Shown piece by piece: positions 2,240 to 43,122 of a stretch of 64,000 nucleotides of DNA. The position numbers were made by a program, and so were the translations under genes. This DNA is from Escherichia phage phiEco32, in the sequence record NC_010324.1. One strand, 5' to 3'. Below the pieces are notes generated by a model, which made no database searches, had not been told where the DNA came from, and saw only the letters and a list, made by a program, of their open reading frames with translations. Position 1 is the stretch's first letter; each line of letters begins with the position of its first letter.

Positions 2240-3781
2240 ATGTCATTAGATAAACAAATTTATGAAGCTCTAACTGGTAACAATCTTAGTGTAGATGAAA
2301 AGAAAGCACTATTGAATATGTTGAAAGAGCGTGACCAATGGAGGAAGTATAATAGGATTTTGTCTTTCAAGGCGTATGACTTCCAAAAGAAATTTTATGC
2401 AGCAGGATTGAAGCATCGCTTTAGATTCTTGTGTGCAGCGAACCGCGTTGGTAAATCTTACAGCGAGGCATACGAGTTTGCTTGTCATGTCACAGGTCGC
2501 TATCCAACTTGGTGGACAGGATATAAATTTAAAAGACCTATCTTAGCATGGGCAGTTGGTATTACAGGGGATTCCACAAGGAAGGTATTGCAAAAGGAAT
2601 TGTTTGGTACACCTATCGGAAAGGATACAAACTTATTAGGGACAGGTGTCATTCCTCGTGACGCTATCGTCATTGACACGATAGAGCGAGATGGTAACAA
2701 ACTTCAAATCGTACAAATCAAACATCAAAATGAAAGAGGAGAGTTTGACGGTTTAAGTACATTAGAATTCCGTTCAACCCAACAGGGTGAACACACATTG
2801 ATGGGTGCAACAGTTGACTACATTTGGTTAGACGAAGAAGATCCATACGAGTCTATGGCTATATTCGCACAGTGCGTCACACGTACACTCACAACTAAAG
2901 GTCTAGTTACAATTACAGCTACGCCAGAGAACGGTTTAACTGAACTGGTAGATAAATTTATGAAAGGTGAAGGAGATGAGAGCACAGGTTCTCTATATTT
3001 CCAGAATGCTTCTTGGTGGGATGCTCATGTAGACCTAGGTGGACACATCACTGACCAAGATATAAAAGATATGACTGAAGGTATTCCAGCGTGGCAGTTA
3101 GAGATGCGTTCAAAAGGTATGCCATTGTTAGGAAGTGGTTTGATATATGATGTATCGGATGACACAATTAAATGTGAACCATTCGAAATTCCTGATACGT
3201 GGAAACGTGTCTGTGCAATTGATATTGGTATTGATCACCCAACTGCTGCTGTTTGGACAGCTTACGACGCAAACACGGATACTATCTATGTTTACGACTC
3301 ATATAAAGAAGGTGGCTTTACTCCAGTGTATCATGCTCCAGCTATTAATGGTCGTGGTCAGTGGATTCCTGTCATCCTACCGCATGATGCGGACAATACT
3401 GAGAAGGGTAGTGGTTCATCTGTTGCTCAATTCTATAAGAATGCAGGAGTTAACGTACAGAGTGAGACCTTCTACAACAAAATTGGAATGGATGGTAAAA
3501 AGAACTTCTTTGTAGAACCGGGAATCACAGATATCCGAGAAAGAATGATGAGTGGACGCTTTAAAGTCTTTAACACAGCCGCTAACGCTAAGCTATTCGA
3601 AGAGAAAGCTAGATATCACCGTAAGGTTGGTAAGATTATTAAAGAACATGATGACTTAATGGATGCAATGCGCTATTCAGCGTGCTCTGTTACACATCGT
3701 GGTCGCTCTAAGCATGATGTTAGCTACGGAAGCGCTTCTTTGTATGAGGCAAACGTAAGCAGATGGAATCAGAGCTACTAA
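2240..3781 (+). CDS. terL: terminase large subunit
   Basis: Walker A-like CAANRVGKS, Walker B-like IWLDEED, C-terminal nuclease-like acidic motifs (DIGIDHPTAAVW); SD GGAGGAAG. Confidence 0.9.
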   Translation: MSLDKQIYEALTGNNLSVDEKKALLNMLKERDQWRKYNRILSFKAYDFQKKFYAAGLKHRFRFLCAANRVGKSYSEAYEFACHVTGRYPTWWTGYKFKRPILAWAVGITGDSTRKVLQKELFGTPIGKDTNLLGTGVIPRDAIVIDTIERDGNKLQIVQIKHQNERGEFDGLSTLEFRSTQQGEHTLMGATVDYIWLDEEDPYESMAIFAQCVTRTLTTKGLVTITATPENGLTELVDKFMKGEGDESTGSLYFQNASWWDAHVDLGGHITDQDIKDMTEGIPAWQLEMRSKGMPLLGSGLIYDVSDDTIKCEPFEIPDTWKRVCAIDIGIDHPTAAVWTAYDANTDTIYVYDSYKEGGFTPVYHAPAINGRGQWIPVILPHDADNTEKGSGSSVAQFYKNAGVNVQSETFYNKIGMDGKKNFFVEPGITDIRERMMSGRFKVFNTAANAKLFEEKARYHRKVGKIIKEHDDLMDAMRYSACSVTHRGRSKHDVSYGSASLYEANVSRWNQSY

Positions 3782-39532: not shown

Positions 39533-41377
39533 TTAGTGTGTATGCATCCAGTTAAGTCCAATCTGACAATCAGATGCCAGAGGACATTCCATGTTCAGAT
39601 ACTCGCCAGCTTTCTTAACACAAAGCTCAGTGTGCTCTTTGAGTTTCTGTACATCATTACGGTTTACTGAGAATTGACCTTCATCGTGCATATCAATTAC
39701 CTTAGCACAACGAACCTTATCTTTCTCAATCCACTTGTTAAGGAACATCATAGCATATTTCATAACAACAGCACCAGCACATTGCAGGAGTGTGTTAAGG
39801 GCTTTATGAACCATAACCTTACCAGTGGCATCCCGTCTCATTGTAATCTTACGACCATCAACTCCAATCAAGTATCCTTGAGCAGCTTTCTCTGTCATAC
39901 GATCGATGAGGATTGCAATACATGGGTTCTCTGCTAAGAAACGTGCTCGCATCACTGAACCTTCGTCAGCCCCACCACCTACAATTGAACCAAGCTTAGC
40001 ATCGCCAGCACCGTAGTTGAATGCATAGATAAATGTCTTAGCGTTGTCACGAGTAGGAAGACCAGCAAGTTTCTGGTTGTGGGAGTGGATATCACCTTCA
40101 AGGAGAATATCACGATACATAATAGCAGAAGCTAAACCACGTTCTGCCAGAGCTTTCTTAGCTGGGTTGTTCTCTTCAATTGCCTCAGCAAGCATATCCC
40201 TACACTCTTTAATGAGGTAGTGAGCGAGCATACGAAGTTCCAGTCCAGAACCATCATACCCTAAGAATACTTCTTTACCAGCGGGTATGTAATATTTGTA
40301 AGCGCCTACAGGTTTGTCTTTCTTCCCCGGCTTACCTTTCTCGTAAATTACGTTAGTACCTTTTCGTATATAACAACCATCAGGAACAACGTTAGTAATA
40401 ACGAAAGGACGAGAGTGATCACTGTCTGAGTTATAGTCAGACTCAAACAGACTGCGACACTCGTGACCAAACAAACCACGGGAGGGAATATTAACCACGA
40501 TACGATGTTTGAATCGAAAAGTTGGCGTAGCGCAGCTGTTAGCTTCTGCCGAAAGTTTACCATCTTCGCGTTCCTTTGCTATGAGTCCACTGATAAGACC
40601 TAGCCTGTGAGCCGCTACAACGCGTCTCTTAAGCAAACTTCCAACACTCCCTAGTTCACCCCCTAGCCCTTCTTCAAGAGTCTCCTCGAGGTTTGTAGGA
40701 GCTGTAGGCCACTTGTTTGATGTGGCTAATGCTTTCTTAATCTCATCAAACGTTACAGGATTACGGCGATTAGGGTTCAATCCCAAACCAAACACGTAAG
40801 CTTTCATGTAGTTCTTAGTTTTAAACCTGAAGTGCTTTTCTAAGAACTTCTTAATATCAGCGTCAACCATCTCGGCTGTCTGCTTTTGCTTAGCATTGCC
40901 TCGCATCCAAGCAGTATACCATGCTTGGTATGTTCCATACTTTCTCATATCTTTCTTAATTTCGAAAGTATTCCAAGGCTTCTTAGATACGTTAAACTCT
41001 GGAGGAAGAAAGCCCTCATCCATAAGAGCTTCTTTAACTCGTGCATCCTTCGATGGGTCAAAGTCTACATATTCGACACAGGTGAAAGCTCCACCAATGT
41101 CTTCTCTCTTCAGTCCAACCCTATCACAATAAGCTTGAGGCCACTTCTGCAAAGCCCCTGACTTCTTAAATGGCTTCATGTAAGTAGAGCCATCTAATCT
41201 CATCTTAGGTAAGAGAGGAATCAACTCTCTGTCAATATTAACAATAATCTCTTTAAGGAGGTGAACATACCACCGAGCATTTCTTCGGTTGAAACTCACT
41301 CCGTGCTTTGCTTGCTTAGAGATTATATCAGCGACAGTCATCTCTGTCAAAAATGGAAGAGCGTCCGGGTTGCTCAC
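39533..41377 (-). CDS. family A DNA polymerase, polymerase domain only
   Basis: Motif A LGYDGSGLELRMLAHY, motif B RDNAKTFIYAFNYGAG, motif C IDMHDEGQF; no 3'-5' exonuclease motifs in this ORF. Confidence 0.85.
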   Translation of the reverse strand: MSNPDALPFLTEMTVADIISKQAKHGVSFNRRNARWYVHLLKEIIVNIDRELIPLLPKMRLDGSTYMKPFKKSGALQKWPQAYCDRVGLKREDIGGAFTCVEYVDFDPSKDARVKEALMDEGFLPPEFNVSKKPWNTFEIKKDMRKYGTYQAWYTAWMRGNAKQKQTAEMVDADIKKFLEKHFRFKTKNYMKAYVFGLGLNPNRRNPVTFDEIKKALATSNKWPTAPTNLEETLEEGLGGELGSVGSLLKRRVVAAHRLGLISGLIAKEREDGKLSAEANSCATPTFRFKHRIVVNIPSRGLFGHECRSLFESDYNSDSDHSRPFVITNVVPDGCYIRKGTNVIYEKGKPGKKDKPVGAYKYYIPAGKEVFLGYDGSGLELRMLAHYLIKECRDMLAEAIEENNPAKKALAERGLASAIMYRDILLEGDIHSHNQKLAGLPTRDNAKTFIYAFNYGAGDAKLGSIVGGGADEGSVMRARFLAENPCIAILIDRMTEKAAQGYLIGVDGRKITMRRDATGKVMVHKALNTLLQCAGAVVMKYAMMFLNKWIEKDKVRCAKVIDMHDEGQFSVNRNDVQKLKEHTELCVKKAGEYLNMECPLASDCQIGLNWMHTH

Positions 41378-41393
41378 TTTATACTCCTTTAAA

Positions 41394-41807
41394 TTATTGG
41401 TAAAGTAAATCTGTAAATGCTTGGTTATCTTCTACTACATCCAAGGATGTGGAATCAACAGCATATGTTCTCATTGCTGCATTTGTTTGTGCCCAAGTAG
41501 GTGGAGAATAAGAAGACCTAACCTCACGAGGCTGCTCTCTGACTAGATGGGCCACAACTCTCTGATTAGCAACTTCTTCTCTTTCTCTAATAGCTCTCTG
41601 GATATAGGCCAGCTTCATGCCCCAAGCTTCTTCAAACTCTTGAGGATGCTTATCACTGATAACCACATACTGACGTTCAGGAATACCAGAGCGAATCTCT
41701 GATAATAATTCATGGAACAAATCTAGTTCATGTTCAGTGAGATTCATTTCAATATCATCCCACTTGAGAACTAAGAAACGGTTTTGGTGTCTAGCTGGTA
41801 ATGGCAT
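41394..41807 (-). CDS. hypothetical protein (137 aa)
   Basis: ORF track. Confidence 0.5.
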   Translation of the reverse strand: MPLPARHQNRFLVLKWDDIEMNLTEHELDLFHELLSEIRSGIPERQYVVISDKHPQEFEEAWGMKLAYIQRAIREREEVANQRVVAHLVREQPREVRSSYSPPTWAQTNAAMRTYAVDSTSLDVVEDNQAFTDLLYQ

Positions 41808-41808
41808 C

Positions 41809-41967
41809 CTACTCCACCTCTACTTCAATGTAAGTTCTCTCGCCAACATCGTCTTTTAAGACCCATGACTTGGCATCTTCTTCCGACTTAAAAGCTTTCA
41901 CAACGCTGTATCCGCCTTCCCATTCATCACCGAACCAGCGCTGTCCTACGTAAATGTATTCTTTCAT
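41809..41967 (-). CDS. small hypothetical protein (52 aa)
   Basis: Not in the ORF track; fills the gap between two track ORFs. Confidence 0.35.
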   Translation of the reverse strand: MKEYIYVGQRWFGDEWEGGYSVVKAFKSEEDAKSWVLKDDVGERTYIEVEVE

Positions 41968-41970
41968 CAC

Positions 41971-42255
41971 TCAACCTTTCGGGAATGGCATTAAAAACTC
42001 TACAGCAGATTTGATTTCGTTATTGATTCGTGAATCACGGTAAGAGATAAACTTACCTTTGCTGTCACGTAACATCACATGGGTTCTGGCTGTTTTGTGA
42101 GGAAGCAAAGTGATACTGGTTGGTATAGTATCAATTCCTACAGAGCATGAATTAATAGTCTTACTCTCTACTAGCAGATAAGACCAAGTACGCGGTTTCT
42201 GCTCCGGACGGTTGGGGTATGTGTCTCGAATCTGTACCATAGCTAACTTATTCAT
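41971..42255 (-). CDS. hypothetical protein, paralog B of a tandem pair (C-terminus ...PFPKG)
   Basis: Shares ...KTARTxxxLRxxxGKFISY...E..A.E.L.PFPKG with the adjacent gene. Confidence 0.5.
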   Translation of the reverse strand: MNKLAMVQIRDTYPNRPEQKPRTWSYLLVESKTINSCSVGIDTIPTSITLLPHKTARTHVMLRDSKGKFISYRDSRINNEIKSAVEFLMPFPKG

Positions 42256-42256
42256 A

Positions 42257-42514
42257 TTAAACTCCTTTAGGGAATGGGATGAGGTTTTCTACTGCAACAC
42301 GATATTCTTTCTCTACATCTTTATTCTTATAAGAAATGAATTTCCCATCAGCTCCACGGAGGATTATATTAGTACGAGCTGTTTTTGCATTATGACCAAT
42401 CTGGTTTGCAATTAGGCTGATGTTGTGTTTGACATCATGGTTATTAGTGAATTTCCACTTAGCCAGACGGTTAGTCCAAACATCGATGATAGTTACGGTT
42501 TTTACAATAGACAT
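42257..42514 (-). CDS. hypothetical protein, paralog A of a tandem pair
   Basis: See paralog B. Confidence 0.5.
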   Translation of the reverse strand: MSIVKTVTIIDVWTNRLAKWKFTNNHDVKHNISLIANQIGHNAKTARTNIILRGADGKFISYKNKDVEKEYRVAVENLIPFPKGV

Positions 42515-42547
42515 AGTTATTACCTAAGAAGTTTAATTTGGTTTATA

Positions 42548-42577
42548 TAAAAGAAAAGGCCACCCTATTGGGTAGCC
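42548..42577 (-). terminator. rho-independent terminator (minus strand) after the basic-protein gene
   Basis: Stem ggcuaccc/gggtggcc with 4-nt loop, followed by UUUUCUUUU on the minus transcript. Confidence 0.5.
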
Positions 42578-42582
42578 TCATG

Positions 42583-42900
42583 TTACGATGAGCTTAAAGC
42601 TCCTTTGCGTGCTCCAGCTGCTTTTCCAGCTCGATCACCACTTTTGCCGCCGTTTGAACGGTTTGAGCTGACTGACTCAACACGTAAGTTGCTTGACGCA
42701 TTAGAGCCTCCAGACTTGACAGCTCGTTTGTGTCCAACGTCTTTACCTCTGACAGCAGCTTTTCCATCGCGCTTTTCAACGATGCGACGTGCACGGTGGC
42801 GCTGAGCATCTCCGCTCTTGCTCCCAACGCCTGTTTCACCACGGGCAATTGCGGTACGTCTTTCTTGTGCATAATCCCTCTTTCCTACATGGTCTGCCAT
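42583..42900 (-). CDS. small highly basic Gly/Ser/Arg/Lys-rich low-complexity protein (105 aa)
   Basis: Strong SD AAGGAG 7 nt upstream; A/T-rich third codon positions like the rest of the phage, unlike the competing frames; own promoter motif and terminator. Confidence 0.5.
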   Translation of the reverse strand: MADHVGKRDYAQERRTAIARGETGVGSKSGDAQRHRARRIVEKRDGKAAVRGKDVGHKRAVKSGGSNASSNLRVESVSSNRSNGGKSGDRAGKAAGARKGALSSS

Positions 42901-42936: not shown

Positions 42937-42945
42937 TATACATTA
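42937..42945 (-). promoter_or_regulatory. TAATGTATA motif (minus orientation) upstream of the basic-protein gene
   Basis: Plus-strand tatacatta; 36 nt upstream of the ATG at 42900; followed by palindrome AGTGTACACT. Confidence 0.45.
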
Positions 42946-42954
42946 TGGATACTA

Positions 42955-43122
42955 TTAAAACTCTGCTAAGTATTTAATATCAGAGGCATATACCTCATCA
43001 AAGGAAATAGGCTCTCCGTTGTAGAGGAGTTCTATTTTCAGTATACCAGAGCATTTGGTGTCTTTGGAATCAACCCTGATAGAGAGTTTGTCAACTATCT
43101 GAGCTTTAATCTCTTCTATCAT
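42955..43122 (-). CDS. hypothetical protein (55 aa from internal ATG)
   Basis: Track ORF 42955..43293 overlaps the upstream gene; Met at 43122 has SD AAGAG. Confidence 0.35.
   Translation of the reverse strand: MIEEIKAQIVDKLSIRVDSKDTKCSGILKIELLYNGEPISFDEVYASDIKYLAEF

Follow-up and report, generated by a model that had tools for sequence, protein, structure and literature searches.

A tandem pair of small paralogs with constant and variable modules upstream of the DNA polymerase gene of Escherichia phage phiEco32

Why do two adjoining small genes of a phage encode proteins that share one internal motif and nearly the same ending? The pair was pointed out in an earlier note on a 64,000-nucleotide stretch of Escherichia phage phiEco32 (sequence record NC_010324.1), the whole of which we call the window. 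By the listing of open reading frames (ORFs), the interval 41971–42514 of the window contains exactly two adjoining ORFs on the minus strand, here called A and B:

42257–42514, minus strand: gene A, 85 residues plus stop, the upstream paralog; homologue of phiEco32 gp57 and SU10 gp54, annotated as a coding sequence (CDS) in related phages
41971–42255, minus strand: gene B, 94 residues plus stop, the downstream paralog; homologue of phiEco32 gp56 (phi32_56) and SU10_053 (SU10 gp53)

The earlier note had described adjacent ORFs of 94 and 85 residues that share KTARTxxxLRxxxGKFISY and end in PFPKG or PFPKGV, and had read them as tandem paralogs. Both ORFs lie where it placed them, and the shared residues are present letter for letter. 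In A the motif spans residues 44–62 (KTART-NII-LR-GAD-GKFISY) and the protein ends in PFPKGV; in B it spans residues 54–72 (KTART-HVM-LR-DSK-GKFISY), with the ending PFPKG.

Two paralogs of one phage protein family

The sharing of the motif is not due to chance. Pairwise alignment (BLASTP) of the C-terminal 41 residues gave 23/41 identities and 78% positives with 0 gaps (E = 3e-16). The N-terminal halves fell outside this alignment, yet their homology was recovered by profile search, in which both proteins matched the phage family PHROG 6814 over their full length: residues 1–85 of A on profile positions 1–86 of 86 (E = 5e-38), and residues 1–94 of B on positions 1–85 of 86 (E = 7e-37). The family signature that we derived consists of an xVxIxD strand, a TARTN loop, R..G(K/R)F(I/V)S(Y/F) and an L-x-PFP tail, and A and B carry all of these elements. 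The tandem paralogy proposed in the earlier note therefore stands, given the alignment, the common family, the common strand and a likeness that no DNA repeat explains. Its description of a shared C-terminus was accurate but too narrow, as the first strand (xVxIxD) and buried positions within the variable middle are common to both proteins as well. A and B are true tandem paralogs, homologous over their whole length.

The likeness is kept at the protein level and not at the DNA level. Over the 41 aligned codons, nucleotide identity was 56% and the proportion of differing synonymous sites (pS) was 0.76, which is saturated; the identical residues used the same codon in 9/23 cases, and the longest identical nucleotide run was 8 nt. 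Because synonymous sites are saturated, few codons are shared and identical runs are short, we consider the duplication ancient; neither recent copying nor gene conversion nor a repeated stretch of DNA accounts for it. The sole DNA repeat between the two genes was a direct one of 33 nt with 73% identity, located at both 3′ ends where PFPKG is encoded. This repeat is also the sole support for a different explanation, in which recent duplication, gene conversion, or non-coding or spurious ORFs would make the motif a repeated DNA element and not the mark of two functional proteins. We assign that explanation a negligible likelihood, in view of the codon comparison, the strong purifying selection on A and B described below, protein conservation that reaches phages without DNA similarity, and the absence of any Rfam match to an RNA element in the A/B region. 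Gene conversion and recent A–B duplication in particular were ruled out by the codon comparison together with substitution patterns among orthologues. A and B are thus very probably real, expressed paralogs with a two-module architecture.

PHROG 6814 is an already catalogued, phage-only family of small proteins (79–107 residues), to which no function is assigned in PHROGs, Pfam or NCBIfam, nor in PMC4281155 or PMC8948821. The phage of the window belongs to the genus Kuravirus (Gordonclarkvirinae), and 2.1 kb around the pair were 89–93% identical to EK5, Paul, EcoN5 and SU10-like phages, among others. In related records the homologue of B is labelled phi32_56, that of a neighbouring 53-residue ORF phi32_55 and that of a 105-residue ORF phi32_58; A therefore occupies the position of gp57, equivalent to SU10 CDS54. 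The phiEco32 gp57/gp56 and SU10 gp54/gp53 pairs are direct orthologues of A/B, in the same gene order and with no structural difference. The closest match to A was a protein of phage 1-6bf (up to 97.6% identical), while B was identical to a protein of phage Paul and 96% identical to a database cluster representative. Proteins near-identical to A and B are deposited as hypothetical proteins.

Word-indexed searches returned close relatives only, namely 38 clusters of A-type relatives (39–97% identity) and 50 clusters of B-type relatives (72–96% identity). The family profile gave 36 matches among 1.84 billion representative proteins. About 32 of these were small, of the 79–107 residues given above, and carried the same signature, and the small homologues formed at least 32 clusters at 50% identity. 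The four large matches (kinesin, SH3_3, DUF346 and cadherin repeat proteins) were rejected as artefacts in which weak matches are summed over repeats. All of the diverse members tested matched PHROG 6814 and no other PHROG (37/37). Distant members came from metagenome assemblies only and had no names in the cluster look-up.

Among cultured phages (50,697 records), the family was limited to 97 E. coli and Shigella Gordonclarkvirinae genomes with 183–186 matching places, two copies being present in approximately 89 genomes and one in approximately 8. Single copies were found in Nieuwekanaalvirus EP335 and Bas92 and on the metagenomic contigs L009/L010, L011, L025, L026, L030 and L034/35; Bas93, Bas94 and Bas89 were also listed as single-copy phages. 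Comparison with related phages, a check that the earlier note had proposed along with alignment and profile search, agreed with the paralogy: in both Suseptimavirus and distant metagenomic phages, these two slots hold A-like and B-like copies. Suseptimavirus ECBP2, NC-B and Bas88 have two copies there, of which the downstream one is clearly B-like (MKISLIQIRD...ISLLPNKTART...), and tandem pairs were present on the distant contigs L024, L027, L029 and L032. In KBNP1711, slot 2 carries a third sequence type in place of the variable middle of B. The two-gene arrangement is ancient and recurrent, is not specific to this phage, and is not obligatory.

A separate observation concerns EcK-vB (PV591327; contig L023, 1501–1698), in which gene A is frameshifted after TARTNV, leaving 65 residues, next to an intact B. 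Either the sequence contains an error here or A is a natural pseudogene in this phage.

Constant and variable modules

How is conservation distributed along the two proteins? Each divides into a variable and a constant part; strand 1, which ends in Asp, counts with the constant part and is given as a separate piece for A:

42482–42514, minus strand: N-terminal strand of A, residues 1–11 (MSIVKTVTIID); conserved, its last residue being the near-invariant D11
42386–42481, minus strand: hypervariable module of A, residues 12–43 (strand 2, loop, helix 1); entropy 1.5–2.1 bits, several discrete allele classes
42260–42385, minus strand: constant module of A, residues 44–85 (KTART loop, strand 3, strand 4 with GKFISY, helix 2, PFP tail); low entropy and low proportion of differing non-synonymous sites (pN)
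42097–42222, minus strand: variable middle of B, residues 12–53; moderately variable, with a hot spot at residues 28–47 and entropy of 0.5–0.8 bits
41974–42096, minus strand: constant module of B, residues 54–94, which aligns to residues 44–84 of A

The residues that are invariant or near-invariant across the family are D11, T45, R47, T48, N49, G57, F59, S61 and P82 (A numbering), and within Gordonclarkvirinae they are joined by R53, L78, P80 and F81. In the A-type set, mean entropy was 0.2–0.6 bits over strands 3–4, helix 2 and the tail (residues 50–85), and 1.5–2.1 bits over strand 2, the following loop and helix 1 (residues 16–39). We calculated pN and pS from 13 orthologous A genes and 10 orthologous B genes. 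The C-terminal half of A had a pN of 0.04 and a pS of 0.375, and its middle 0.33 and 0.58; the corresponding values for B were 0.04 and 0.28 in the C-terminal half, and 0.10 and 0.44 in the middle. Among orthologues, pN/pS in the C-terminal halves was therefore 0.11–0.15 (pS 0.28–0.38), which is clear evidence of strong purifying selection on the constant half.

The changes in the variable module follow its predicted structure. AlphaFold2, run on a 65-sequence alignment, modelled A with a predicted local distance difference test (pLDDT) score of 89 and a predicted template modelling (pTM) score of 0.79, with lower confidence in the PFPKGV tail. The model consists of strands at residues 6–13 and 16–23, a helix at 29–39, a strand at 50–53, a short strand at 59–60 and a helix at 69–76. 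A and B are accordingly predicted to adopt a two-layer alpha+beta fold in the order b1-b2-a1-b3-b4-a2; in a model of an A–linker–B fusion, B formed the strands and C-terminal helix of A in the same order, with the middle (helix 1 of A) not modelled. The buried residues W20, F22, I35 and I39 are conserved inside the variable part of A, and the fold is therefore kept while the surface changes. The variable module retains its buried residues and differs at its exposed ones, strongly in A and moderately in B.

No structural relative of the A model was found in PDB or BFVD, and the family profile matched no PDB sequence below E = 0.05. We set the fold beside ferredoxin- and RRM-type two-layer alpha+beta sandwiches (RAMP/Cas7, PII, de novo Top7-like designs). 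Circular permutation of the ferredoxin-like order b-a-b-b-a-b would give the b-b-a-b-b-a of A; the resemblance is generic only. An RRM or ferredoxin-like nucleic-acid-binding domain was rejected, the pair lacking the combination of b-a-b-b-a-b topology, RNP1/RNP2 motifs and significant structural similarity that defines it.

The variable module also behaves as a unit of exchange between phages. A sliding nucleotide comparison with 12 related genomes across a 2.9-kb stretch of the replication module showed that 42361–42480, in the variable half of A, was only 52–65% identical to phages that are 95–100% identical on both flanks. Smaller dips in identity occurred in B (42121–42180) and in a downstream 137-residue gene (41461–41520). 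The variable spots of the three genes reassort independently between phages; the A allele of the window is common to EcoN5, Bas92 and 1-6bf, and its B allele to Paul and WFI101126. The A allele classes differ at 40–60% of amino acids, with saturated synonymous sites. Chimeric A alleles (P0031-36, P0033) combine an ECBP2-type (Suseptimavirus) N-terminal half with a Kuravirus-type C-terminal half, and the crossover lies within the conserved TARTNV...GKFIS core. Phages thus swap the variable module by recombining within the conserved core.

Gene order, expression signals and neighbouring genes

Does the setting of the pair say anything about its role? The gene order is the 105-residue gene, a terminator, A, B, the 53-residue ORF, the 137-residue MPLPxR gene and DNA polymerase, with gaps of 0–16 nt from A onward, and the order of 105-residue gene, terminator, family member(s), MPLP protein and DNA polymerase A is conserved in distant phages. 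The cluster around A and B belongs to the middle expression class (PMC4281155, PMC8948821). The features that surround and link the genes are, in the direction of transcription:

42937–42969, minus strand: middle promoter 5′ of the 105-residue gene, with the phage-sigma motif AATGTATA (42937–42944) overlapping a sigma-70-like promoter
42583–42900, minus strand: 105-residue gene (phi32_58 homologue); basic, Gly/Ser-rich product with a degenerate HNH-like motif; always adjoins the family (on L009 at 3348–3665 and on L030 at 1851–2168)
42546–42579, minus strand: strong intrinsic terminator between the 105-residue gene and A; 10-bp GC-rich stem (42556–42579), 4-nt loop and U-tract
42262–42268, minus strand: Shine-Dalgarno element AAAGGAG of gene B, inside the last codons of A (K-G-V); a ribosome-binding site is annotated here in Paul
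41975–41979, minus strand: Shine-Dalgarno element AAAGG of the 53-residue gene, inside the last codons of B (K-G)
41809–41970, minus strand: 53-residue ORF (phi32_55 homologue) between B and the MPLP gene, present in some Kuravirus genomes only
41394–41807, minus strand: 137-residue MPLPxR protein, directly 5′ of DNA polymerase A in most lineages examined
39533–41377, minus strand: DNA polymerase (family A), the fixed point of the conserved gene order

A single nucleotide separates the stop codon of A from the ATG of B. The junctions read AAA GGA GTT TAA t ATG at the end of A and AAA GGT TGA gtg ATG at the end of B, and from their layout A, B and the genes leading to DNA polymerase would be translationally coupled. 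Since the KG(V) ending encodes the ribosome-binding site of the next gene, we take the family motif to be L-x-PFP, with KG(V) partly a constraint of that site. The PFPKG(V) ending highlighted in the earlier note is present, but KG(V) is specific to two coliphage groups, Kuravirus and EP335/Bas92, and is no part of the family definition. Elsewhere PFP is followed by other residues, yet the tail again contains a GGAG- or GGTG-like element.

This coupling bears on the idea that A and B form an obligate heterodimer, derived from a duplicated homodimer and serving replication as a single accessory complex, whose further partner might for instance be DNA polymerase or the MPLP protein. The 1-nt gap, the ribosome-binding site inside A, the retention of the two-slot arrangement in several deep lineages and the presence of both copies in approximately 89 of the 97 cultured relatives would all fit such a complex. 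We nevertheless consider it distinctly unlikely, as there are the single-copy lineages listed above, cultured and metagenomic, and A and B reassort their variable regions independently of each other. The A–linker–B model had a pTM of 0.44, a pLDDT of 62 and no confident interface, although this is a weak test, having been made on a single-chain fusion with a shallow 17-pair alignment and without predicted aligned errors.

The signals upstream of A frame the 105-residue gene. The hairpin and T-run of the terminator are kept in place in three genera, with a different stem sequence in the distant contigs L025 and L026, and a terminator is annotated at the same place in WFI101126. Its position amid a middle-gene cluster implies that expression of the 105-residue gene would be high compared with that of the genes following it as far as the polymerase. 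The sigma-70-like promoter over AATGTATA consists of TTAGCA (a weak −35), a 16-nt spacer and the −10 element CATAAT, and the AATGTATA motif occurs 6 times in the window against 2.35 expected. In SU10 a promoter lies between CDS56 and CDS57, and the published motif tAATGTATAtA (PMC4281155) matches the promoter in the window. The overlap of phage-sigma and sigma-70-like elements agrees with a published proposal in which both holoenzymes recognise these middle promoters. Only a weak likeness to the phage-sigma motif, TTTTATATAA, was seen in the gap between the terminator and A, and we claim no promoter there.

The 105-residue protein has an HNH-like core (VDHIKPVKSGGSN..NLRV....NRSDGGK) without Cys pairs. 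Its distant homologues scored E = 0.003 and 18.2 bits against Pfam HNH, below the 21.4 cut-off, and the protein in the window carries an Asp-to-Gly change (DVGHK) and has no Pfam HNH match. The gap between this gene and the terminator (42579–42583) is an insertion hot spot that is empty in the window. It holds an HNH homing endonuclease gene in EcoN5 and YF01 and an SU10_055-like ORF in WFI101126; in distant phages, an acidic ORF of 83–93 residues occupies the spot (equivalent spots examined on L013, L014, L020, L009, L011 and L030).

Such a hot spot invites the explanation that the variability of A is a by-product of homing, through co-conversion tracts or escape of the target site, and is silent on protein function. 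The endonuclease genes in EcoN5 and YF01, the other insertions at the same spot (including L009, L011 and L030) and the start of the most variable stretch of A some 80 nt downstream of the insertion site are all in keeping with it. We regard this as very unlikely all the same. Amino-acid divergence of 40–60% with saturated synonymous sites far exceeds what escape from cleavage needs, and the endonuclease is not tied to an A allele, as EcoN5 and the window share an allele, yet of the two only EcoN5 carries the gene. At distances of 400–1000 nt, B and the 137-residue gene have variable segments too.

The genes downstream of the pair are themselves variable in presence or sequence. The 53-residue ORF is missing in CHD5UKE1, YF01, 1-6bf, L007, EP335 and Bas92. 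The MPLPxR protein has a conserved N-terminal domain of approximately 85 residues and a hypervariable C-terminal part (total length 78–253 residues), with no Pfam match, and its mosaic spot at 41461–41520 has approximately 53% nucleotide identity between flanks of 80–100%. In several related phages (L026, 6873–9354; L032, 3547–4914; L034, 3140–5152) DNA polymerase A was called in at least two pieces, of approximately 450 residues plus further ORFs, which suggests that the gene is split or interrupted there by an intein, an intron or a mobile-element insertion.

Candidate functions of the pair

What might A and B do? Public records offer two product names, 'autotransporter adhesin' and 'Cas8 protein', but these labels shift between A, B and the 105-residue gene across Kuravirus records in GenBank, and they look like propagated annotation errors. 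Autotransporter adhesins have a signal peptide, a long passenger and a C-terminal beta-barrel or YadA-type anchor, and run to hundreds or thousands of residues; A and B have only 85 and 94, and neither had an autotransporter or adhesin match in Pfam or NCBIfam at E ≤ 1. The type IV Cas8/Csf1 assignment was rejected too, the match being to B only (PADLOC typeIV_Cas8, E = 0.013, 13.4 bits, 60/213 profile positions), and the flanking regions examined had no annotated cas genes. DUF3164 (PF11363) matched A only, with 14.2 bits and E = 0.035 against a gathering threshold of 23.7 bits, and was likewise set aside; in a Pfam scan of the 37 diverse members nothing was significant, DUF3164 appearing weakly in 1/37. 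All matches of A and B in Pfam, NCBIfam and PADLOC (DUF3164, flagellin, typeIV_Cas8) were at chance level.

From the two modules, the mosaic exchange and the locus, we tentatively suggest that A and B are small binders or adaptors with a constant and a variable interface. With low confidence, they would act as such during phage genome replication. The constant polar and basic face, made up of Arg47, Arg/Lys53, Lys/Arg58, Thr45, Thr48, Asn49, Ser61 and Tyr62, would dock on an invariant target, for which nucleic acid and conserved proteins of replication or of the host are the likeliest candidates. On the variable face the partner would be one that differs between hosts or phages, and the two diverged copies could thereby provide two specificities. 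Of the possible constant ligands, nucleic acid itself seems unlikely. Net charge varies across the family (−6 to +6 in the N-terminal part, −1 to +7 in the C-terminal part) and is not conserved, and we therefore do not lean strongly on nucleic-acid binding.

Several points weigh against the adaptor proposal, among them this variation in charge. The homology searches supplied no function for A or B, a binding activity included. The gene order beside the polymerase may reflect plain vertical inheritance rather than functional linkage, and the loss of B in EP335 and Bas92 means that the pair is not obligatory. We found no signal of positive selection on the variable half of A, where the uncorrected pN/pS was 0.56 with pS near saturation; a similar picture would be expected of old alleles whose constraint has relaxed. 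The account as a whole blends a well-supported description with a weakly supported mechanism, and we give it an even chance of being correct.

The same variability could be explained if A and B were anti-defence or host-takeover inhibitors, with the variable face as an arms-race interface against strain-variable host factors, the constant half as a scaffold, and the tandem copies widening the range of targets. Small phage inhibitors such as T4 Dmd, phiEco32 gp79, T7 Gp2 and the anti-CRISPRs are shorter than 100 residues, phage-restricted and fast-evolving, and often have an orphan fold. A and B resemble them in size, phage restriction, fast evolution and orphan fold. The hypervariable, mosaic exposed surface over kept buried residues, the independent reassortment of alleles among otherwise near-identical phages, and the repeated duplication and loss of copies would also be expected of such proteins. 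However, A and B differ from these inhibitors in being middle-class genes of a replication module, not members of the early host-takeover set, and in having one very strongly conserved half, which is more conserved and has more polar invariants than a scaffold needs. Moreover, pN/pS is below 1, PADLOC gave a chance-level match only, and no fold or sequence match to small inhibitors was found (T4 Dmd against the A model: Foldseek probability 0.04–0.06, template modelling score approximately 0.3). An inhibitor role is conceivable, if on the unlikely side.

Returning to the adaptor proposal, a broader version of it would make PHROG 6814 an undescribed two-module class with a new fold, in which a constant docking module, bound to an invariant target of the replication stage (nucleic acid or a conserved replisome or host protein), carries a hypervariable specificity cassette that is swapped by recombination and multiplied by tandem duplication. 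In effect, such a diversified set of binders would determine compatibility with host strains or their defences. We hold this version to be doubtful.

The kind of finding is ordinary, being a conserved small phage gene pair and not a new type of system. What is noteworthy is the combination of an orphan fold, a conserved polar motif, a cassette-like variable half and a recurrent tandem arrangement. For annotation, the result is that two hypothetical genes of Kuravirus phages descend from an ancient duplication within a single family, and that some of the product names given to them in public records are wrong. The confident orphan fold and the strongly conserved polar motif make the pair a tractable target for structural and functional work. 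Within the 2.9-kb stretch compared, three spots are sharply mosaic, among them the variable half of A. The locus could matter in therapy and biocontrol, since studies in both fields make use of Kuravirus phages; if the variable half sets host-strain or defence compatibility, its alleles would be both a marker of host range and a handle on it.

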